Assembly (NCBI RefSeq): GCF_000284455.1
Contig: NC_017039.1
Coordinates: 1,050,001 to 1,082,000 of the forward strand
Reading direction: 5' to 3'
DNA: 32,000 nucleotides
Source: Synechocystis sp. PCC 6803 substr. PCC-P
GTDB taxonomy: Bacteria; Cyanobacteriota; Cyanobacteriia; Cyanobacteriales; Microcystaceae
Below are positions 2,377-21,957 of this stretch, one piece after another (the first letter of the stretch is position 1; the number at the start of each line of letters is the position of its first letter). The notes under the pieces are model-generated. The model did not search any database. It had not been told where the DNA came from and saw only the letters and a program-made list of their open reading frames with translations. Position numbers and translations under genes: made by a program.

Positions 2377-2698
2377 CCTGGGATCAAGACAGCTCAATCT
2401 CAGCAAGTTTGGTTAAAAAAAGATTATTAGTTGGGCGTTCAGTTATTTGAGCCACTATTTTAATCTTGTTTTTTCTTGATCCCTGACCTTTTTTGTTCCA
2501 TACCATACCATTATCTAAAGATTTTGTTACCTGTTAAGGTCGGGTGCTGTGTCAAACGTATCGATTTGTAAAACGAATATTAAGACAACCTGAAGAGAAT
2601 TTCCTTCCATCGGGGAGGTAAAGGCAGACAGAGTAACTGTTTAATGCGGATTTGCCCCCTTGGTTGAATAGGGCAAAATATAAACATCTAGAAAGTTC

Positions 2699-2738
2699 GA
2701 GCTGATATTTTTCAAAAAGAGCTGATATTTTTCAAAAA
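2699..2738. repeat. perfect tandem direct repeat, 2 x 20 bp (GAGCTGATATTTTTCAAAAA)
   Basis: Read directly: 2699-2718 and 2719-2738 are identical. The repeat ends 35 nt upstream of the ATG at 2773. Confidence 0.95.
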
Positions 2739-2772
2739 TTTTAACAACTGCCTAATTTCCCCACGCACCCCC

Positions 2773-3039
2773 ATGAAAACCGCTAACTTTATCACCTCAT
2801 CTTGTCGTTATTGCCGCTACTACCAGGCTGAAGGTAGGCGAGGCGGCACTTGCAGTCAACTCAATGTGCCAGTACAGGGACAGTGGAAGGCCTGTGCCCT
2901 AGCGGCAAAACCCTTTGCCGGTCCCTGGGAGAACCTCGAAGATGTGGTGTATTTAGAACATGCCTATGCTTTGACCAGTAAGGATGCTCTAGTGGAACAA
3001 TCGGCAGAAACGATCGCCACCGCAGCCGAAGCGGCCTAG
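2773..3039 (+). CDS. small Cys-rich protein of unknown function
   Basis: 88 aa with four Cys in the first 41 residues (CRYC...C...C). It is preceded by a long (~400 nt) intergenic region. I recognise no family. Confidence 0.55.
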   Translation: MKTANFITSSCRYCRYYQAEGRRGGTCSQLNVPVQGQWKACALAAKPFAGPWENLEDVVYLEHAYALTSKDALVEQSAETIATAAEAA

Positions 3040-3181
3040 ACAGCACAATTGGGGTAATGGACTCTTAAAGGGTGTTAAAGGTATTTGCCATAGTGGAGAC
3101 TGTTTTCGGGGAACTTTTGGGGTTAATTTTCCGACATAGTGCCATAGTAGGGCTGAACAGGGGAGCTTTGGTCTGATCAGC

Positions 3182-4009
3182 TTAGGGGAGCCAGGGATAT
3201 TGGCTAAAATCCGGGGGGCGTTTTTCCAGGAAGGCTTGTTTGCCTTCACTGCCCTCTTCTGTCATGTAATAAAGCAAGGTGGCGTTGCCCGCTAGTTCCT
3301 GTAATCCAGCCTGGCCGTCACAGTCGGCATTGAAAGCAGCTTTAAGACAGCGGATAGCCAGGGGACTTTTGCTCAAGATTTCCTTCGCCCATTGGATACC
3401 TTCTTCCTCCAGGCGATCGACGGGAACAACGGTGTTCACCATGCCCATGCGTTCTGCTTCCTGGGCAGAGTATTGGCGGCAAAGATACCAAATTTCCCTG
3501 GCTTTTTTTTGTCCCACAATGCGAGCTAAGTAACTGGAGCCAAAGCCTCCATCAAAACTCCCCACTTTTGGCCCGGTTTGGCCGAAAATGGCGTTATCTG
3601 CGGCAATGGTCAGGTCACACACCAAATGTAAAACGTGGCCACCACCAATGGCATAGCCAGCCACTAGGGCAATGACAACTTTGGGCATGGAGCGGATTAA
3701 CCGCTGTAAATCGAGCACATTGAGGCGGGGAGTTCCTTGGTCGTCGATATAACCCCCTTCTCCCCGGACAGATTGATCCCCACCGGAACAAAAGGCATAT
3801 TTGCCATCGCTGTGGGGCCCGGCTCCGGTTAGTAGTACAACCCCGATGCGGTTATCTTCCCTGGCGTTACAAAATGCGTCATAAAGTTCAAAAACGGTCT
3901 GGGGACGGAAGGCGTTGCGTTTATGGGGACGATTGATGACAATTTTGGCGATCCCCCCCGCTTTGTAATAGAGAATGTCGTCGTAATGTTTTGCAATGTG
4001 CCAATCCAT
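3182..4009 (-). CDS. menB: 1,4-dihydroxy-2-naphthoyl-CoA synthase (phylloquinone pathway, crotonase fold)
   Basis: 275 aa. [34 protein letters not shown] and [19 protein letters not shown] are characteristic MenB segments. Confidence 0.92.
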
Positions 4010-4209
4010 AGGTTCCCTCCTGAGCAGTCCTTACCCATCTTACGGGGACAGCGTAAAGGTTTGACCCAATTCCTATTCCATCAATAACCGACCGTTAAGG
4101 CTAATTTGTGAGTAAACAAATATAAAGCAATGCAAAGGATTGGCCCCAAACTTTGGCGATCGCCTTACTATGCAGATCAAGACCTCCGTGTTTACTTTGA
4201 TTTTTTTCC

Positions 4210-5802
4210 ATGACCATTGCCGCCCCTAAAACCACCGTTGCCCCTGAGATGAAGCCGACGACACCGAAAAAAATTGGTGTACCCAGGGAATCCTTTGACC
4301 AGGAATGCCGGGTGGCCATGACCCCCGATACAGCCCAAAAGCTGCAAAAATTGGGCTTTGATTTGTTGTTGGAAACGGGAGCGGGAGCAAAAGCGGATTT
4401 CGCCGATCGCCTTTATGAGTCCCTAGGCTGTGGCATTGTCGATGGTCGCCAAACCTTATTTGAGCAAGCGGACATTATCCTCAAAGTGCGGCCCCCTTCC
4501 CCGGCAGAGGTGGAGGAGTTACCGGCGGGGAAAGCCCTGATTAGTTTTATCTGGCCGGCCCAAAATCCCGAATTGCTGGAAAAATTGGCGGCGAAAAATA
4601 TCACTGTGCTGGCGATGGATGCGGTGCCCCGGATCAGTCGGGCCCAGAAATTGGATGCCCTCAGTTCCATGGCCAACATTGCCGGTTACCGGGCGATCAT
4701 TGAAGCGGCTAATCGTTTTGGGCGGTTTTTCACTGGACAGATCACTGCGGCGGGCAAAGTTCCCCCAGCAAAAGTTCTGGTCATTGGGGCCGGGGTAGCA
4801 GGGTTAGCGGCGATCGGGGCGGCCAAAAGCTTAGGGGCGATCGTGCGGGCCTTTGATACTCGCCCAGTGGTCAAAGAACAGGTGGAAAGTTTAGGCGGGG
4901 AATTTCTCCTGCTGGACTTTAAGGAAGACGGCACCGGGCAGGGGGGTTACGCCAAAGTAATGAGTGAAGAATTCATTGCGGCGGAAATGGCGTTATTTGC
5001 CGCCCAAGCCAAGGAAGTGGACATTATTATCACCACAGCGTTGATTCCCGGTCGTCCCGCCCCCAAATTGATTACTGAACCCATGGTCAAATCCATGCGG
5101 GCTGGTTCCGTAGTGGTGGACTTAGCGGCGGAGCAGGGGGGCAACTGTGAAGTTACTAAACCCGGCGAAGTTTATGAATATGAAGGGGTGACCATCATTG
5201 GCTACACTGATTTGCCCAGTCGCATGGCCAGTCAATCCAGTCAGCTTTACGGCACCAATCTCTGGCATTTGCTCAAGGATATGGGCGGCTCCGAAGCTTT
5301 CAAAGTGGATGTGGAAGATGAGGTTATTCGGGGAGCCTTGGTATCCCATGAAGGCAAGATTACTTGGCCACCGCCGAAGCTTAATCCCCCTAGTCCGGTG
5401 CAACCAGCTAAACCTACCGTGACCGTAGTGGAGAGTGAAGCCAAATCTGCTAAAAAATCCGGCTCCGGTAATTTTCTTTGGTTAGCCCTAGCGGCGATCG
5501 CCTTGGTGGGCATTGGTATCGGCGCACCTACTTCTTTTCTCTCCCATTTCACTGTGTTTGTGCTGGCCTGTGTGGTGGGTTGGCAGTTAATTTGGAATGT
5601 GGCCCCGGCATTGCACACCCCTTTGATGAGTGTGACCAACGCCATCAGCGGCATCATCATTATCGGTGGCATGTTGCAGATTTCCGGGCCATTGAATAGT
5701 CCCACCACTATCTTGGGGGCGATCGCCATTTTAGTGGGAACGATCAACATTGCCGGGGGATTTTTAGTTACCCAACGGATGCTGAAAATGTTTCGGAAGT
5801 AA
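4210..5802 (+). CDS. pntA: NAD(P) transhydrogenase subunit alpha (dI plus membrane helices)
   Basis: 530 aa. It has IGVPRE...RVAMTP, a Rossmann motif [22 protein letters not shown], and C-terminal transmembrane helices. An alternative start at the ATG at 4249 is possible. Confidence 0.92.
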
Positions 5803-5828
5803 TTTTATTTTTTAATAGGAATTAAATT

Positions 5829-6368
5829 ATGGCCAGAAAATCAAAAGAATTTCAAAAATTATTTCACGAAGAAACCCATGCTGAGAAATCACCAAGAAGG
5901 GAGTCTACTTCTCAATCCATTAGAAAAAAGGAATTAGCGGCTTACGATCAATTCAAAAAAAAGCTTGAAAATGATGAGCACAATAAAGGCGCCACCTTTG
6001 TTAAAAATCCCAAAGGCATGAGAAAAATGTCTGAGGTTTTAGAGGAATTTGTCGCCCCCTTTATTGGTGATGAAGACTCCTATGAAGAAAGGGAATTTTT
6101 CTTTGAGCTAGCAATATTAGCCTGGAATTGTTCAGTATTCCCAGAAAGTGGGCGAGAAAAACTTATGGAAGCTTTTTTTACAGATTTGAGCAATCCCCTC
6201 GAGCCAGAAAGTATAGAAGCGACGCAGGATTTAAGAGTTTTTGTTGAGGAGTTAATTGAGCGCAAATTAGAAGTATTTCCTAAGGACAAAAGAATTATCC
6301 AAGATTTCCAATTAACTCAACATGAAGCCGGTTTCCACGTTGCTGTGTCCTACGTTATGGCTCGATAA
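5829..6368 (+). CDS. hypothetical protein (charged N-terminus, acidic helical C-terminal part)
   Basis: 179-aa ORF in AT-rich DNA. Its stop at 6366-6368 lies 5 nt before the next ATG (6374). I recognise no catalytic motif. Confidence 0.6.
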   Translation: MARKSKEFQKLFHEETHAEKSPRRESTSQSIRKKELAAYDQFKKKLENDEHNKGATFVKNPKGMRKMSEVLEEFVAPFIGDEDSYEEREFFFELAILAWNCSVFPESGREKLMEAFFTDLSNPLEPESIEATQDLRVFVEELIERKLEVFPKDKRIIQDFQLTQHEAGFHVAVSYVMAR

Positions 6369-15914: not shown

Positions 15915-18900
15915 CTAAAAAGGTAGATCTTCTTCTTCCTCCGGGGCGATCGCCGGTCGGTTCAGGACGGTGGGTTGGTTAATTTGCAGATGTCCATTGT
16001 GATCCATGGGTTGCTGACCAAGTTCCGCCGTTGGTTCCGTAGATAAATCATCGCCATTATCCGATTCCTGTTTGGGAGCCGCATCGGATGCCACAATTTC
16101 CCCGTCAAAATTTTTGGCAAACTGCTCGATCGCCTTGCGGGTGGCACTGTCACCAATATCTGTCGGAGGCGGCTCTTCCATGGCTGGAGCCGGTTTTGGT
16201 TTGGGCCGAGAAGGATTAGAGAAATTATTTGATTCCCGTCGGGGGGAAGGTTTTATTTCCGATGTAGCGGGGCCCCTGGCGATCGCCGGGGGAGAAGGAG
16301 GCACAGTGGGAGCCGGATTAGCATTAACCGCTGCGGTGGGGGGAGGGCTTGGCTCTGGAGCAAAGGCTGGCGGCTTACTATGGCTAGGGGGAGGAGCGCT
16401 GTTAACCGGAGTAGTTTCCGGGGTCGATGGCTTACCCACCACCAAATTCACTTTCACCGATTGGCCACAGGCTTGCCCTAGGGCCGCTTCCAATTCATCC
16501 TTTTTGCCCGCCGCAATTTTAAGCAGTTGTTGGGTGGTAACACTGACGGTGGCATTATTCCCCACCAAATTGATCAAAGAACCAAAGGATTTAAATAAAG
16601 ATTGACTGAGCGCCCCTAGATTGTTTAACGTTTCCGACCATAACTGGGTCAGATCCCAATGGGCGTTGCTCGGCTCAAAGCTGGATGGCTCTACATCTGC
16701 TTCTAGCTTCTCTTCTAGAACAATAGGTTCAGAAACAGGAATCATTGTAGGAGAATCCACCACGGTTAGATGGTTGTGTGAGCCACCAGGGAAAGTCACC
16801 ACATTACTGGGCTTTGGCGGAGTTATTGGTTGAGCCACAGGTGTTCTAACTGCCGTTTGACTAACTGCCCCAGTGTCCAACCCACAGGCGGATGGCAACA
16901 GCCCCAACAGGGTCACCTCTAGCCAAAGTCGGGGCTGGGTAGTGTTACGAATTTGGATTTCACTTTCCTTAAGTTTTTGTTGTCCTTGCAAAATCACTCC
17001 CCTTTGCCATTGGGGCGCCGTGTCACACAGGGCTTGCCAGGTTTCCGCCGTCACCGCCACCAAATCTGAGCGTTGGGGAGCTGTTTGGGCAATAAGTAAA
17101 TTCAAATAAAAACTGGCTAAATTTTGCAATACCACCAAGGGTTCCCGCCCCCGGTTCAAAATCTGCCGACAGGTAGCCAATAGGGTTTCTGCATCGTCAC
17201 TGGCGATCGCCTCTAGGAGGGCTAACAAATCCTGTTCCGGCACCGCCCCCACGAGGTCCCAAACTTTATCGGGGGTAATCAGGTCGGGGAGCAGACTTAA
17301 TTGATCGAGTAAACTTTCCGCATCCCGTAAACCACCATTGGCAATTTGGGCCACTAGGGTCAAAGCTGGTTGGTCAATATTAATATTTTCTCGCCCAGCA
17401 ATATAACGGAGATGGTCCACCATGGCCTGCAAAGGAATGCGGCGATAATCAAACCGCTGACACCGGGAAATAATGGTGGGTAAAACCCGCTGGGGATCGG
17501 TGGTAGCGAGGACAAAAACAACCCGCTCCGGTGGCTCTTCCAAGGTTTTTAGCAGGGCATTGAATGCGGCCGTGCTCAACATATGACAGTTATGGACTAG
17601 TAAGCCATTGGCAACAAAATTGTGATTATCTTCCACCTCCAGGTCATAAACTTTTTCCACTTGACCCTTAGTGACGGACTCAACTTCCTCGAAATTTGTA
17701 TGCCATTGCGGGGATGGAATAGATTTCCAAGTCCGATAACCACTTGCGGGTGGCCACTGCTCCCATTTTTGTGTAGTAATAGGTTTTGCTGTTAATGCTT
17801 CTGCGATAGGATTTTGCACTGGTGGGATATCCTCTATCGGTAAGCCATTCAGCAATAAGTTGATTTTCTTCCGGGAAAAAGCCCTCTGTGTGTAACTGAA
17901 TTGATGGACTCCCAGATTCGGAAATAGAGAGGGAACCGTCGTCCATGTACCACCAAGCCATTCCTTCTTCAGTGATATGCGAGAGCCATTCCGAAGAAAC
18001 TTGTTTTCTTTTACCTCCAGGTTTGACTGTGCTGAAAACATCAATAAGGTTTGGGGAACAACGGGTTTGACAGCAGATGGAACTTTCCCCATAGCCTTTA
18101 TTGGCTGTGAATCGTATTTTGGGTGACAGACATCCCAGTCTTGCCGCTTTATATTCCATCCATTCTGACTGCTTGGTGCCGTGGGTCCATCGCAAGCGGG
18201 GGAATCGGCTATGTGGGTTGGGATAGTCAATACTTCCATCCCCAAGCAAGGTTCCGTAGATAAGACCGAGAATTTCTGCTCCCAACGGTTCTGACCCTGA
18301 TGTAATTTTTTCTGTTCTGAGATCCCAAAGTCCGTGGCTTTTTTTGTAGGGATGTCTTCGCCAATGGGATTGGATACTTTTAATTTCTCTTCCTTTGCAC
18401 TGCAAAAATGCTGGAATATCAAGTTTTTCGCCACATCCGCATTGACAAAAGGGTCTTGTGGCTTCTGCTTCTTCAAGGATAGAGATAAGGTCGTATTTTT
18501 TTTGTCCGTATTGATTGCCTCGTAGTTGATGGCCCCGGACAAACCGCCTAAGCTTGCGGTCAGTGCCGTACTTTGCGATAAATTGTCCACATCCACACTC
18601 GCAGGGGATAGTATCTTCATTCCGGGAGTGATGTTTTCCGCTCTCGTCCATCCTTGTTCAGTTCTGATTAAATGGTTAGCCGTACACCGTACTGTAGAAT
18701 TTTTTGTCTTAATAGACAATGTTTGCTTTTCGCCTCTGTCAAGCCATCTTAAAACTTTTTTATATTCCCATTGCTGTAGAGTTTCGTTGTAGCTCAGAAC
18801 TTCTCGCCCTTTTATTTGGGGATTGTCAATGGACATTAAGCCATTGCGGGTCAAAACTTGTGAGTCCCCCGTTAAGCATTCATCGATCACATATACTTTA

Positions 18901-19265
18901 TATCTGCACTGTACTGGGGCAAATTGAGCCCGTTCAATAATTTCTCGGATATTATCTACCCCTGTATTACTGGCCGCATCAATTTCAATTACGTCTAAAG
19001 CTGAACCGTTAGTAATAGCCCGACAGGTGGCACATTGGCCGCAGGGAGTGGCAGTAGGCCGATCGCCAGCGATGCAGTTTAAGGATTTGGCTAAAATTCG
19101 GGCTGAAGAAGTTTTTCCCGTTCCCCTGGGGCCCGTAAATAGGTAAGCAGGTACGATGCGCTCCTGTTCAATGGCATTGCTCAATGTGGCGGCGATCGCC
19201 GTTTGGCCCACCAAATCTGCAAAGGTCTGGGGGCGATATTTATGGTGCAGAGGTTCGTAGGCCAT
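15915..19265 (-). CDS. dnaX: DNA polymerase III subunit tau/gamma, interrupted by an in-frame intein
   Basis: The N-terminus YRPQTFADLVGQ...FTGPRGTGKTS (Walker A), the CGQCATC zinc module, and KVYVIDE followed after the intein by CHMLSTAAFNALLKTLEEPP are canonical DnaX. The C-terminal part is long and Pro/Ala-rich. Confidence 0.95.
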   Translation of the reverse strand: MAYEPLHHKYRPQTFADLVGQTAIAATLSNAIEQERIVPAYLFTGPRGTGKTSSARILAKSLNCIAGDRPTATPCGQCATCRAITNGSALDVIEIDAASNTGVDNIREIIERAQFAPVQCRYKVYVIDECLTGDSQVLTRNGLMSIDNPQIKGREVLSYNETLQQWEYKKVLRWLDRGEKQTLSIKTKNSTVRCTANHLIRTEQGWTRAENITPGMKILSPASVDVDNLSQSTALTASLGGLSGAINYEAINTDKKNTTLSLSLKKQKPQDPFVNADVAKNLIFQHFCSAKEEKLKVSNPIGEDIPTKKATDFGISEQKKLHQGQNRWEQKFSVLSTEPCLGMEVLTIPTHIADSPACDGPTAPSSQNGWNIKRQDWDVCHPKYDSQPIKAMGKVPSAVKPVVPQTLLMFSAQSNLEVKENKFLRNGSRISLKKEWLGGTWTTVPSLFPNLGVHQFSYTQRAFSRKKINLLLNGLPIEDIPPVQNPIAEALTAKPITTQKWEQWPPASGYRTWKSIPSPQWHTNFEEVESVTKGQVEKVYDLEVEDNHNFVANGLLVHNCHMLSTAAFNALLKTLEEPPERVVFVLATTDPQRVLPTIISRCQRFDYRRIPLQAMVDHLRYIAGRENINIDQPALTLVAQIANGGLRDAESLLDQLSLLPDLITPDKVWDLVGAVPEQDLLALLEAIASDDAETLLATCRQILNRGREPLVVLQNLASFYLNLLIAQTAPQRSDLVAVTAETWQALCDTAPQWQRGVILQGQQKLKESEIQIRNTTQPRLWLEVTLLGLLPSACGLDTGAVSQTAVRTPVAQPITPPKPSNVVTFPGGSHNHLTVVDSPTMIPVSEPIVLEEKLEADVEPSSFEPSNAHWDLTQLWSETLNNLGALSQSLFKSFGSLINLVGNNATVSVTTQQLLKIAAGKKDELEAALGQACGQSVKVNLVVGKPSTPETTPVNSAPPPSHSKPPAFAPEPSPPPTAAVNANPAPTVPPSPPAIARGPATSEIKPSPRRESNNFSNPSRPKPKPAPAMEEPPPTDIGDSATRKAIEQFAKNFDGEIVASDAAPKQESDNGDDLSTEPTAELGQQPMDHNGHLQINQPTVLNRPAIAPEEEEDLPF
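17589..18878 (-). mobile_element. intein (430 codons) in the DnaX Walker B/sensor region
   Basis: The TGC Cys1 codon is at 18876-18878 (CLTGDSQVL, block A) and TANHLIRT is block B. The intein ends ...VYDLEVEDNHNFVANGLLVHN (AAC at 17589-17591). The +1 Cys follows at 17586-17588 (CHMLS). Removing it restores VYVIDE-CHMLS. The length, 1290 nt, is divisible by 3. Confidence 0.92.
17680..18651 (-). CDS. double-motif LAGLIDADG homing-endonuclease-like ORF nested in the intein, out of frame with dnaX
   Basis: 323 codons with an ATG start, offset 614 nt from the dnaX start (not a multiple of 3). LGLIYGTLLGDGS is at 18232-18270 and MAWWYMDDGSL at 17929-17961, about 100 aa apart. The N-terminus has two CxCGCG...H modules. 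Confidence 0.6.
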   Translation of the reverse strand: MDESGKHHSRNEDTIPCECGCGQFIAKYGTDRKLRRFVRGHQLRGNQYGQKKYDLISILEEAEATRPFCQCGCGEKLDIPAFLQCKGREIKSIQSHWRRHPYKKSHGLWDLRTEKITSGSEPLGAEILGLIYGTLLGDGSIDYPNPHSRFPRLRWTHGTKQSEWMEYKAARLGCLSPKIRFTANKGYGESSICCQTRCSPNLIDVFSTVKPGGKRKQVSSEWLSHITEEGMAWWYMDDGSLSISESGSPSIQLHTEGFFPEENQLIAEWLTDRGYPTSAKSYRRSINSKTYYYTKMGAVATRKWLSDLEIYSIPAMAYKFRGS

Positions 19266-19920: not shown

Positions 19921-21957
19921 TCAATTCTGGCGTGATCCGGGCCCTTCCGGTCTTGGTTGACCATCAATGTAGGTAGCTAAATCCCAGGCCTCTTGATCCG
20001 TCAACACTCCATCAAATTGATAGGGCATATTACCGTGGATAAATTCTGCCAAAGTATTAATCCTCGCCATCCCCGCTTGGCGATTGAAGGAATTGGGGCC
20101 CCATAGGGCTGGGCGATAATAGGTGTCACTGCCATAGCGACCCTGGCCCAACGCACCGTGGCAAAAAGCACATTTCTGCTCAAAAATTGCCTGGCCTTGA
20201 TTTGGATTCCCCGTCAGTTTGGCAATGGGGGGATAGGGGGTTTTGGGCAAATCGATGTTCAATACCTCTGCCTGTTCATCCAGCCACTGCATATAGCTGA
20301 TAAAAGCTTGGAAATCGGGACTATCGGCGGTAATGGTCAGAGGTTTGCCGTTGAGGCTATGTTCAAAACAAAGATTGATCCGTTTCTGTAAATTGATGGT
20401 TTCTGGATATTGATATTTTTTCATCATGCCAAACCAGGAAGATGCTTTCGGATTAGCCCCGGCATTGAGGTGACAACTAGCGCAATGAAGCTTGGCAGTG
20501 AGCACAAATTCTGGCATTTCCTCATAGGTTTCGGTCGTTAATTGATAGCCCCGCAGAATACTATTCCAATGCTGATTATCCCAAGCCGTTACCGGTTCAT
20601 CGGGGGGAGAAACAACTTGAGGATCAATTTGGGTCGGGAGGGCATCGGCAAAGGTAAAACTAAAATCCGCCGAAGCAAATTTTTTGACATTACTACTCCG
20701 GGCCATGGCGTGGCATCCCATACAGGAAGATGTCCCCTGGATATAGGTTTCCATGGTGGTATTGGCTAACAGGGCTGGTAGAACGTGAAAAACGGTGTCG
20801 GGGCTTTTATCCGCCGCTGATTTGGGGATAGCCCATTGAGCATTGATTAATTCATAATTGGCCCAAACGGAATCTTTTAACCCTGCTTGTACAAGGCGGT
20901 TAAGCTCGGCAACGTTATCCACTGCTTTGGTGGGTTGACTGCAATCCGGGTCTTGGTGGGGAATAGGAGTTCGGCGAGTGACTTGGTTGGGAACACCAAG
21001 AATGGTTTGTTTGTTGGTCAAGCAATTAACGCACCGATCGCCGTGGAAGGAGAAAACGGTATTGGCAGAACCACTGTGGTTTAAACCGGGGACATTATCC
21101 ACCTGTTCATAGGTGGACCAAATCCACTGGGGCGCACTGGGAGTTTTATACATAATGTGAAATCCCACCAAACCCATCTGTTGCAGTTGATATTTCCCTG
21201 TGGTTAAATCCTGCACATAGGCCGGTACATTGTGAAAACGGCCGGATTCCTCCGGGGTAATTTCCCGCCAAGCGGCCTTAATTAAAATGGAGCCATCAGG
21301 GGCATTAATTTCGGGTAAAAGAGCCTGTTGTTCTGGGTTGTAAAGTTTATTTTTCACCACATAATCAAACAACACCTTATTCATGCGAATTTCATAGCGC
21401 ACCACATTGCCCCACTGATCGGTCAAAGTTCCGGGCAATGCCCCATCAGCTTTGGTGGGTTGAAATTCATCATTGAGTACTTCATCCACCTTGCTTTGAC
21501 GAAATAAAATTTTCGTTCTTCCATCTCCTTTCAAACCATTGGGTAAAGGTTCATTACTATTCCATGGCTGCGGCACTGCGCCATTGGGCAAATAAACTTC
21601 GCTGGTTTCTTTCCAGGTTTCCCACACCCTTGGGCCGGGAGCATTGATGGCTAAATTTTTATCCGGCACTCCCCGATCGCCGTCGCCAACTATAGCGGGC
21701 CAGTTTAGGGCAATGAATTCTTGCCAAGCAAAGGTATCCACCGCCCGTTGGACAACATTGAAATTCTTTTGCTTGAGTTCCCCTTCCACGTCTGCCGGTA
21801 ACTGCCAACTGATGGCAAGGGGAGATAATTTGGCATTACAAACCCCAGGCAAAGTAATAGTAGCAACGGTTTTAGAGCTTACTGGAGTTACCAGGGAAAA
21901 AAACAGCACAAAAATAATCACAACTAGGGCATAGGCCGTAATTCTTCCTATTTTCAT
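19921..21957 (-). CDS. secreted c-type cytochrome: unknown ~450-aa N-terminal domain plus a TsdA-like dihaem C-terminal domain
   Basis: It has a Sec-type signal peptide (MKIGRITAYALVVIIFVLFFSLVTPVSS) and three CxxCH motifs (CMGCH, CASCH, CAFCH). CASCHLNAGANP...INLCFEHSLNGKPL and CAFCHGALGQG...PALWGPNSFNRQAGMAR...FIHGNMP resemble thiosulfate-dehydrogenase-type dihaem cytochromes. An SD-like AGGGGGA lies upstream of the ATG. Confidence 0.8.
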   Translation of the reverse strand: MKIGRITAYALVVIIFVLFFSLVTPVSSKTVATITLPGVCNAKLSPLAISWQLPADVEGELKQKNFNVVQRAVDTFAWQEFIALNWPAIVGDGDRGVPDKNLAINAPGPRVWETWKETSEVYLPNGAVPQPWNSNEPLPNGLKGDGRTKILFRQSKVDEVLNDEFQPTKADGALPGTLTDQWGNVVRYEIRMNKVLFDYVVKNKLYNPEQQALLPEINAPDGSILIKAAWREITPEESGRFHNVPAYVQDLTTGKYQLQQMGLVGFHIMYKTPSAPQWIWSTYEQVDNVPGLNHSGSANTVFSFHGDRCVNCLTNKQTILGVPNQVTRRTPIPHQDPDCSQPTKAVDNVAELNRLVQAGLKDSVWANYELINAQWAIPKSAADKSPDTVFHVLPALLANTTMETYIQGTSSCMGCHAMARSSNVKKFASADFSFTFADALPTQIDPQVVSPPDEPVTAWDNQHWNSILRGYQLTTETYEEMPEFVLTAKLHCASCHLNAGANPKASSWFGMMKKYQYPETINLQKRINLCFEHSLNGKPLTITADSPDFQAFISYMQWLDEQAEVLNIDLPKTPYPPIAKLTGNPNQGQAIFEQKCAFCHGALGQGRYGSDTYYRPALWGPNSFNRQAGMARINTLAEFIHGNMPYQFDGVLTDQEAWDLATYIDGQPRPEGPGSRQN

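Follow-up and report, generated by a model that had tools for sequence, protein, structure and literature searches.

Canonical inteins such as PI-SceI and PI-PfuI consist of a Hint splicing domain interrupted by a LAGLIDADG nuclease, which is an in-frame domain of the same polypeptide, and they presumably home via double-strand-break repair. The intein in DnaX (DNA polymerase III gamma/tau) of Synechocystis sp. (Ssp) PCC 6803 carries a LAGLIDADG nuclease at the same topological position, but there the nuclease would be a separate polypeptide encoded in another frame. Discovery and characterisation of this intein are credited to Liu (1997), and the proposal of an alternate-frame endonuclease to Gorbalenya (1998; Nucleic Acids Res 26:1741), by Phillips, DeSimone, and Gogarten (2026; bioRxiv 10.64898/2026.09.14.751524). 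Very recently, these authors described a LAGLIDADG open reading frame (ORF) in the +2 frame of cyanobacterial dnaX inteins, the in-frame centre of which is of low confidence. They overlaid an AlphaFold3 model on I-WcaI, to which it is similar, and reported purifying selection on the +2 frame with a frame-dependent omega (FUBAR on 123 sequences), Shine-Dalgarno-like motifs upstream, and a sporadic distribution in which full, mini- and intein-free alleles coexist; they were unable to trace where the endonuclease came from, and mention neither helicases nor split forms (Phillips et al., 2026). Engineered Ssp DnaX inteins that splice and trans-splice are on record in published papers. The alternate-frame endonuclease of the Ssp DnaX intein is thus already published. 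Here we report an analysis of 32,000 nucleotides of Synechocystis sp. PCC 6803 substr. PCC-P (NC_017039.1, positions 1,050,001 to 1,082,000; hereafter the window), in which this intein lies on the minus strand; the element of the 2026 preprint is the window element itself, with no difference in kind. Our results were obtained independently, from other genomes and with other methods, and agree with that preprint; added to it are the start codon embedded in a GGA-TGG hexamer, a quantified avoidance of stops in the dnaX frame, and a set of phage relatives.

The dnaX precursor ORF (15915..19265, minus strand; 1116 codons and a stop) encodes an exact match to BAA17547.1 of PCC 6803. Its N-extein (DnaX residues 1-129; 18879..19265) ends in the Walker-B sequence ...VIDE, and is followed by an intein of 430 codons (residues 130-559; 17589..18878) running from Cys1 to His-Asn430, and then by the C-extein, which begins with the +1 Cys (CHMLSTAAF...; 15915..17588 with the stop codon). 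The N-terminal Hint half (intein residues 1-92; 18603..18878) contains block A (CLTGDS, residues 1-6, within CLTGDSQVL) and block B (TANH, residues 66-69, within TANHLIRT, residues 66-73), and the C-terminal half (residues 396-430; 17589..17693) contains blocks F and G and ends in VYDLEVEDNHNFVANGLLVHN immediately before the Cys. In the dnaX frame these ends matched intein_Nterm (TIGR01445; residues 1-73, E=6e-9), PT-HINT (residues 8-91), and intein_Cterm (TIGR01443; residues 409-430, E=4.6e-10), while Pfam Intein_splicing (60.1 bits against a cut-off of 35.8) bridged residues 23-430. The ~303 intein codons between the halves (17694..18602) are without a Pfam or NCBIfam domain, and no endonuclease family was found in the dnaX-frame intein with either set of profiles. 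This bears out a sequence-only reading of the stretch, made without database searches, which had seen Hint blocks only at the two ends of the intein. The Cys1 nucleophile and the block B TxxH (TANH) are those of a class 1 intein, and the terminal His-Asn is followed by Cys. In addition, Synechocystis sp. CACIAM 05 has an intein-less DnaX (686 aa), identical at 676 of 686 positions to what is left of the window protein once residues 130-559 are taken out, and its two extein parts join seamlessly (VIDE|CHMLS); the intein is therefore a precise insertion in a conserved host motif, and its presence/absence polymorphism is demonstrated.

An ORF of 323 codons and a TGA stop (17680..18651) shares the strand of dnaX but is shifted to the -1 (+2) frame. 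The Synechocystis dnaX endonuclease is, by contrast, said to be antisense in a 2025 preprint (bioRxiv 10.1101/2025.01.02.630785). The ORF starts 614 nt from the dnaX ATG and 227 nt inside the intein, and 91 nt separate the end of its stop codon from the end of the intein. For the intein and this ORF, the sequence-only reading was correct in every coordinate and motif. We show below that the 323-codon ORF is a real, selectively maintained overlapping gene, and we consider it very probable that the whole is a non-canonical intein whose homing-endonuclease gene is separate from, and overlaps, dnaX.

The product of this frame matched Pfam LAGLIDADG_2 (PF03161) at residues 130-273, scoring 72.4 bits where the cut-off is 25 (E=5.7e-20), so that the LAGLIDADG assignment of the alternate frame, suggested earlier by motif only, is now backed by a profile. 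The single-chain core (residues 110-320; 17692..18324) contains two motifs spaced by ~100 residues, LGLIYGTLLGDGS at residues 128-140 (18232-18270) and MAWWYMDDGSL at residues 231-241 (17929-17961). Among 83 protein homologs, most are ~331 aa, full length, and 55-63% identical; over 24 diverse endonuclease homologs, the acidic residues D138 (LLGD138GS), D237, and D238 (YMD237D238GS) are invariant. Upstream of the core lie two CxCGCG...H modules, the first (CECGCG at residues 17-22 with H41; residues 17-41, 18529..18603) having C17, C19, G20, and C21 invariant and H41 nearly so, and the second (CQCGCG at residues 69-74 with H106; residues 69-106, 18334..18447) having C69, C71, G72, C73, and H106 invariant over the same homologs. 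Relatives bear 2 to 5 such modules. They are putative Cys3-His modules that may bind metal and contact DNA. They share the CxCGCG motif with DUF6527 (PF20137), which two homologs (P0027 and P0060) match at 3-4e-8, but the window protein has no match to it in residues 1-124 at E<=1, and membership is unsupported by the profile. Pfam gave nothing significant for residues 1-124 alone, and no NCBIfam family matched the endonuclease.

A profile of the 24 homologs retrieved I-WcaI (6x1j, E=8e-21) and I-SceI (1r7m, E=4e-16) among PDB sequences. An AlphaFold2 model built from the same alignment has a mean predicted local distance difference test (pLDDT) score of 86.7, with 75-81 for the first Cys3-His module, and its order of secondary structures fits a tandem alpha-beta-beta-alpha-beta-beta-alpha fold. 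In a Foldseek comparison of this predicted fold with the PDB, I-SceI was the top match, with I-WcaI also among the best (template-modelling score of 0.73 on the target, E ~5e-12), while similarity to the canonical PI-SceI and PI-PfuI was weaker (E ~1e-6). Like the I-SceI and I-WcaI enzymes of mitochondrial group I introns, which belong to PF03161, the window protein has two LAGLIDADG motifs in one chain. It differs from them in that identity is just 17-19%, in an extra N-terminal region of ~110 residues with the two Cys3-His modules, and in being nested in an intein and not in an intron, its cleavage activity being predicted.

Whether both frames are maintained can be judged from orthologs. 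A scan of one genome per GTDB species yielded 192 relatives, and the best 80 of these 192 loci were fetched; all are cyanobacterial except one contig labelled Rhizobium sp. Q54. In 80/80 loci, the endonuclease homolog lies in the same frame, one base behind a dnaX ORF of ~1100 codons, while the third frame is closed, and the endonuclease frame is intact in ~70/80. The sequence-only reading had also called for a comparison of frame-specific conservation and of third-position periodicity, and both came out in favour of its interpretation. Over 46 dereplicated sequences, pairwise differences at endonuclease codon positions 1/2/3 were 0.239/0.174/0.445, and mean pairwise amino acid identity was 0.689 in the endonuclease frame, whereas the same DNA gave 0.454 when read as dnaX and 0.456 when read in the closed third frame. 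Stops per sequence were 0 in the dnaX frame and 19.3 in the third frame; the window itself has 16 in its third frame. In exteins and Hint ends, variability peaks at dnaX position 3; the peak moves to dnaX position 2 (which is endonuclease position 3) at codons ~205-215, and moves back at ~526-530. These switch points coincide with the boundaries of the endonuclease ORF, and in the short overlap of the ORF with Hint, constraint falls on all three codon positions.

Comparison of the window with its nearest relative (L001; 80% endonuclease identity) gave a ratio of nonsynonymous to synonymous substitution rates (dN/dS) of 0.14 for the endonuclease frame and of 0.02 for the N-extein; the bases of the endonuclease ORF gave 0.92 when translated as dnaX. 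When the 323-aa protein was re-encoded 5000 times with local codon usage, 10.15 +/- 2.29 stops were expected in the dnaX frame, while 0 are observed. Because 0/5000 of the simulated sequences were free of dnaX-frame stops, the double open frame is not due to chance. The conservation, dN/dS, and stop-avoidance results together indicate that, read in the dnaX frame, the central part of the intein is a spacer under no constraint other than to stay open, and it is the codon choice of the endonuclease that keeps it open. Thus, over ~300 codons, an essential gene is kept free of stops purely through the codons chosen in another frame, and the splicing element and the nuclease of this intein are separable genes under separate selection regimes.

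One might argue that the reference sequence contains two compensating sequencing errors and that the true intein has an ordinary in-frame endonuclease. We give this practically no credence: 80 independent assemblies and at least eight overprinted phage helicase loci (GC content 0.34-0.65; see below) agree in the frame relation, the exact dnaX protein is present on 271 contigs, and nothing was found in favour of an artefact, which is thus refuted.

Two observations on the collected sequences may be recorded here. The contig labelled Rhizobium (L074; CALRKB020000050.1) belongs to a metagenome-assembled genome named 'Rhizobium sp. Q54' and has dnaX with the intein and the out-of-frame endonuclease as in cyanobacteria; the label is probably due to binning contamination. 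On two short metagenome contigs from the Joint Genome Institute (P0049 and P0055), a single gene was called in which the DnaX N-extein, the N-terminal intein half (IntN), and the spacer run on in frame into the C-terminal endonuclease part, which implies a single-base indel in the overlap and may reflect an assembly error or a dead allele.

The ATG of the endonuclease (18649..18651) straddles two codons (GGA-TGG) of the Hint motif EQGWTRAEN, its A being the third base of Gly and its TG the beginning of Trp. The third position of this Gly codon, which is synonymous in dnaX, is A in 63/63 aligned orthologs; the hexamer GGATGG is present in 79/81 sequences, and the ATG is retained in 80/81. AGGA, a Shine-Dalgarno-like motif, is found 10 nt upstream of the ATG in 46/63 sequences. 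The stop is a TGA within Hint codons. The distance from its last base to the intein end is 55 nt in 23 loci, 67 nt in 45, and 91 nt in 5, and the window belongs to the 91-nt group. These features of start and stop argue for independent initiation on the dnaX mRNA. No internal promoter was found on the minus strand in a simple sigma-70 scan, which is uninformative for cyanobacterial promoters and in which overall promoter counts were below the shuffled expectation; with no such promoter, translation of the endonuclease would have to rely on the mRNA of dnaX.

Several points weigh against a nuclease gene that is expressed and active in PCC 6803 today. Besides the negative promoter scan, PCC 6803 has AGAA where most of the aligned orthologs have AGGA, and the AAGG that adjoins its ATG lies too near to act as a classical ribosome-binding site. 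Nonsense codons interrupt the endonuclease frame in ~10/80 orthologs while dnaX is open (L005, L020, L029, L037, L039, L055, L057, L070, L072, and L080), so that decay of the endonuclease does occur and activity in any one strain is not guaranteed. No NCBI protein record was found for the 323-aa ORF. Finally, translation of the 323-aa protein and cleavage of DNA by it are matters that we infer rather than observe directly. These points could be taken to mean that the frame in PCC 6803 is a recently dead relic, open but unexpressed or inactive, in an intein that persists since precise loss is rare; the nonsense-bearing orthologs with an intact dnaX, the weakened Shine-Dalgarno-like motif, and the lack of NCBI annotation all fit such a relic. 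We nevertheless regard it as improbable, because every residue invariant in the family is kept in PCC 6803, dN/dS is 0.14 on the branch pair with the nearest relative, and the ATG and the full length are kept. The ten interrupted loci also fit decay of the endonuclease within the homing cycle. Since the ORF lies inside dnaX, gene callers suppress it, and a model cyanobacterium thus has a real protein-coding gene without a protein record at NCBI. Searching for expression literature under sll1360, which we take to be the locus tag, returned no papers.

With regard to database entries, MetaClust was the only source of the exact 323-aa sequence (UPI0002F2DE95). The Bacillus subtilis BEST7613 hybrid genome, in which dnaX too is broken up into several gene calls, is the only one to have part of it annotated, as a hypothetical protein of 93 aa (BAM51285.1).

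Recoding is known for dnaX elsewhere, by -1 frameshifting in E. coli and by transcriptional slippage in Thermus. The endonuclease frame is the -1 frame of dnaX, and PCC 6803 has a run of eight A residues 146 nt into the ORF (window 18496-18503; T8 on the plus strand), inside both frames. The nuclease could accordingly be made, with no internal initiation, as a fusion of the DnaX N-terminal part to the endonuclease through -1 ribosomal frameshifting or transcriptional slippage at this run. One Logan assembly (SRR16464703_9186; L164) is even identical to the window except for a run of nine A residues, and encodes a fusion of DnaX(1-256) to endonuclease(51-323) (P0097, 528 aa). Slippage, sequence variation in a polyploid genome, and a sequencing error could each account for the ninth A, the last being the simplest explanation of a single homopolymer-length variant in one assembly. 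The run is specific to PCC 6803, most orthologs having A5-A6 and no slippery heptamer, and because it is not conserved, frameshifting or slippage is not a general route to the endonuclease; as a conserved route it is rejected. Moreover, of the two invariant Cys3-His modules the fusion would have lost the first, and 80/81 sequences retain the ATG although it falls on a synonymous site. We therefore hold recoding to be very improbable, even more so than a relic. The likeness to the E. coli and Thermus cases extends to the gene, the -1 frame, and the A-rich run in PCC 6803, while the differences are that the run is not conserved and that the second product would be an unrelated selfish nuclease with its own conserved ATG, and not a shortened DnaX.

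On the reading that we prefer, a non-canonical intein with a separate, overlapping endonuclease gene, the element would work as follows. Translation of dnaX in frame 0 would give the precursor, in which ~92 N-terminal and ~35 C-terminal intein residues would form the Hint splicing domain, the ~300 residues between them being a meaningless spacer, and self-excision of the intein would leave the 686-aa clamp-loader subunit. Initiation at the internal ATG (18651-18649) would have the -1 frame read into a 323-aa protein, predicted to consist of the two Cys3-His modules and an I-SceI-like single-chain LAGLIDADG core. This enzyme most likely cleaves intein-less dnaX at the Walker-B junction (...GTGATCGATGAA|TGTCATATG...), the predicted substrate being the intein-less junction GTATATGTGATCGATGAA|TGTCATATGTTGAGCACG, and repair of the break would copy the whole element into the intein-less allele, as presumably occurs with PI-SceI and PI-PfuI. 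Selection in the centre acts on the endonuclease frame, and the dnaX frame stays open solely via the codon choice of the endonuclease.

The same Hint halves and CxCGCG-LAGLIDADG endonuclease were also found on phage-like metagenome and IMG/VR contigs, again at a Walker-B site of the form DE|C...HN|C(H/Q/N). The overprinted layout, with the host frame at endonuclease+1 as in dnaX, occurs in phage superfamily 2 (SF2) helicase genes (ResIII/Helicase_C; L084/85, L090, L091-94, L095-97, L099, L102, and L139; e.g., L084 2778-5864 with the endonuclease at 4001-5056). In eight overprinted helicase loci, the host frame has 0 stops against 7-36 in the third frame, at a GC content from 0.34 to 0.65. A second layout consists of three genes in the order N-extein+IntN, endonuclease gene with its own GGAGG, and C-terminal intein half (IntC)+C-extein, and was found in phage clamp-loader genes (L082/83, with L082 at 3257-6239, and L088/89, with L088 at 2538-5521) and in a phage helicase gene (L086/87, with L086 at 3016-5686). 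L098 and L101 show a split frame pattern and are grouped with the three-gene loci by this pattern alone, and not by host gene. The three-gene loci have 7-24 stops in the endonuclease+1 frame, and short overlaps or spacers at the endonuclease/IntC junction. In a third layout, the phage clamp-loader locus L081 (5001-7761) has N-extein, IntN, and endonuclease fused in frame (531 aa), and the endonuclease stop shares bases with the ATG of IntC+C-extein (ATGGCTAA). The result would be a split intein with the nuclease on its N fragment. The window Hint halves align to the separate IntN and IntC genes of the phage loci. A stop and restart between IntN and IntC is found only in L082, L086, L088, L098, L101, and L081, while the window dnaX is continuous.

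More distant LAGLIDADG_2-type cores are without CxCGCG modules. Some are in-frame domains of related inteins (e.g., L105, an RNA-ligase intein, L123, L124, L126-128, L133, and L141), while others lie at the other offset (host frame at endonuclease+2) in contiguous inteins of phage genes whose host frame is open throughout (L108, 2609-5839, of which the host gene is a DEAD/Helicase_C helicase; L109, L111, L114, and L155, 1615-4419). Xanthomonas phage FoX3 gp40 (L165; MT161383.1 26902-29268), annotated as 'putative DNA helicase', has an unannotated intein (LWDE|CIVGDS...LVHN|CHH) with a 266-codon out-of-frame LAGLIDADG remnant that is likewise without CxCGCG modules; as FoX3 is a cultured phage, gp40 is a possible experimental system. 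In a rough neighbor-joining tree of the endonuclease cores, four clades were recovered, namely cyanobacterial dnaX (support 100), the split or fused phage clamp loaders (100), and two clades of overprinted phage helicases (92 and 99).

The offset of host = endonuclease+1 is identical in the cyanobacteria and in the two phage helicase clades at an endonuclease identity of ~33%, which implies one ancient event, whatever its nature. The overprinted state is accordingly old and has been stable, regardless of its origin. Two origins had been proposed from the sequence, invasion of a mini-intein by a free-standing endonuclease gene or a doubly frameshifted former endonuclease domain. In the latter case, no free-standing gene was ever nested into the Hint domain; the in-frame endonuclease domain of a canonical intein lost its frame through two indels that compensate each other, and an internal ATG present by chance rescued it. 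Related Hint domains that do have an in-frame LAGLIDADG_2-type core, the fused frame of IntN and endonuclease at L081, and the shared offset itself are in keeping with such a history. Even so, we find it unlikely, although much less so than the relic or recoding discussed above. The in-frame relatives are without CxCGCG modules, their similarity being confined to the core (query residues ~130-320), and this core belongs to PF03161, the I-SceI/I-WcaI type of intron-encoded or free-standing enzymes. Of the module-bearing relatives without overprinting, the closest (L082, L086, and L088) have the endonuclease as a gene of its own, with its own GGAGG, flanked by the two halves of a split intein. 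Besides, the first frameshift would truncate an essential protein before the second, compensating one. Because of the I-SceI/I-WcaI-type core, the N-terminal modules of its own, the invariant ATG, and the separate-gene relatives, the evidence leans to a Hint domain carrying a free-standing-type endonuclease gene. Of the two proposed origins, then, invasion by a gene of the free-standing type is tentatively favoured over the doubly frameshifted domain. The deep nodes of the endonuclease tree are unresolved, and the direction of layout change is thus not readable from it.

We tentatively suggest, as a possibility that falls short of an even chance, that the Synechocystis element is a member of a large clade of Hint + CxCGCG-LAGLIDADG elements with four layouts, not described in the literature consulted, of which the overprinted form is a direct intermediate to split inteins. 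Such a clade may home to the Walker-B DE|CH codons of P-loop nucleoside triphosphatases (clamp loaders and SF2 helicases) in cyanobacteria and phages, and its layouts may be the overprinted -1 frame, the three-gene split, the IntN-nuclease fusion with a separate IntC, and, more distantly, the in-frame domain. As the linker frame is free apart from stop avoidance, one nonsense mutation and a start codon for IntC would give a split intein. If this is true, overprinted inteins are direct evolutionary intermediates to naturally split inteins. The phage relatives are what could matter beyond the published locus; they link the overprinted architecture to split inteins, could show how split inteins originate, and are testable systems.

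Two further kinds of described elements are close to this group. The three-gene layout of fractured genes, split inteins whose halves flank a free-standing endonuclease gene (Dassa et al., 2009; PMC2677866), is that of the phage relatives L082/83, L086/87, L088/89, and L098; the window intein differs in that it is contiguous, its halves being joined by an open frame through the endonuclease gene, and a figure legend of the paper names GIY-YIG and Vsr-like endonucleases, not LAGLIDADG. The non-canonical inteins of actinobacteriophages (bioRxiv 10.1101/2025.01.02.630785) likewise have an unstructured in-frame centre, but their nuclease families or strand differ, as do their host genes, and a same-strand, -1-frame LAGLIDADG enzyme with CxCGCG modules is absent from the types listed there.

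Elsewhere in the window, an Rfam scan of its whole length returned no matches. Neighbouring dnaX, an ORF of 678 aa (19921-21957, minus strand) has a signal-peptide-like N-terminus and several CxxCH haem-binding motifs (e.g., CASCH and CAFCH).

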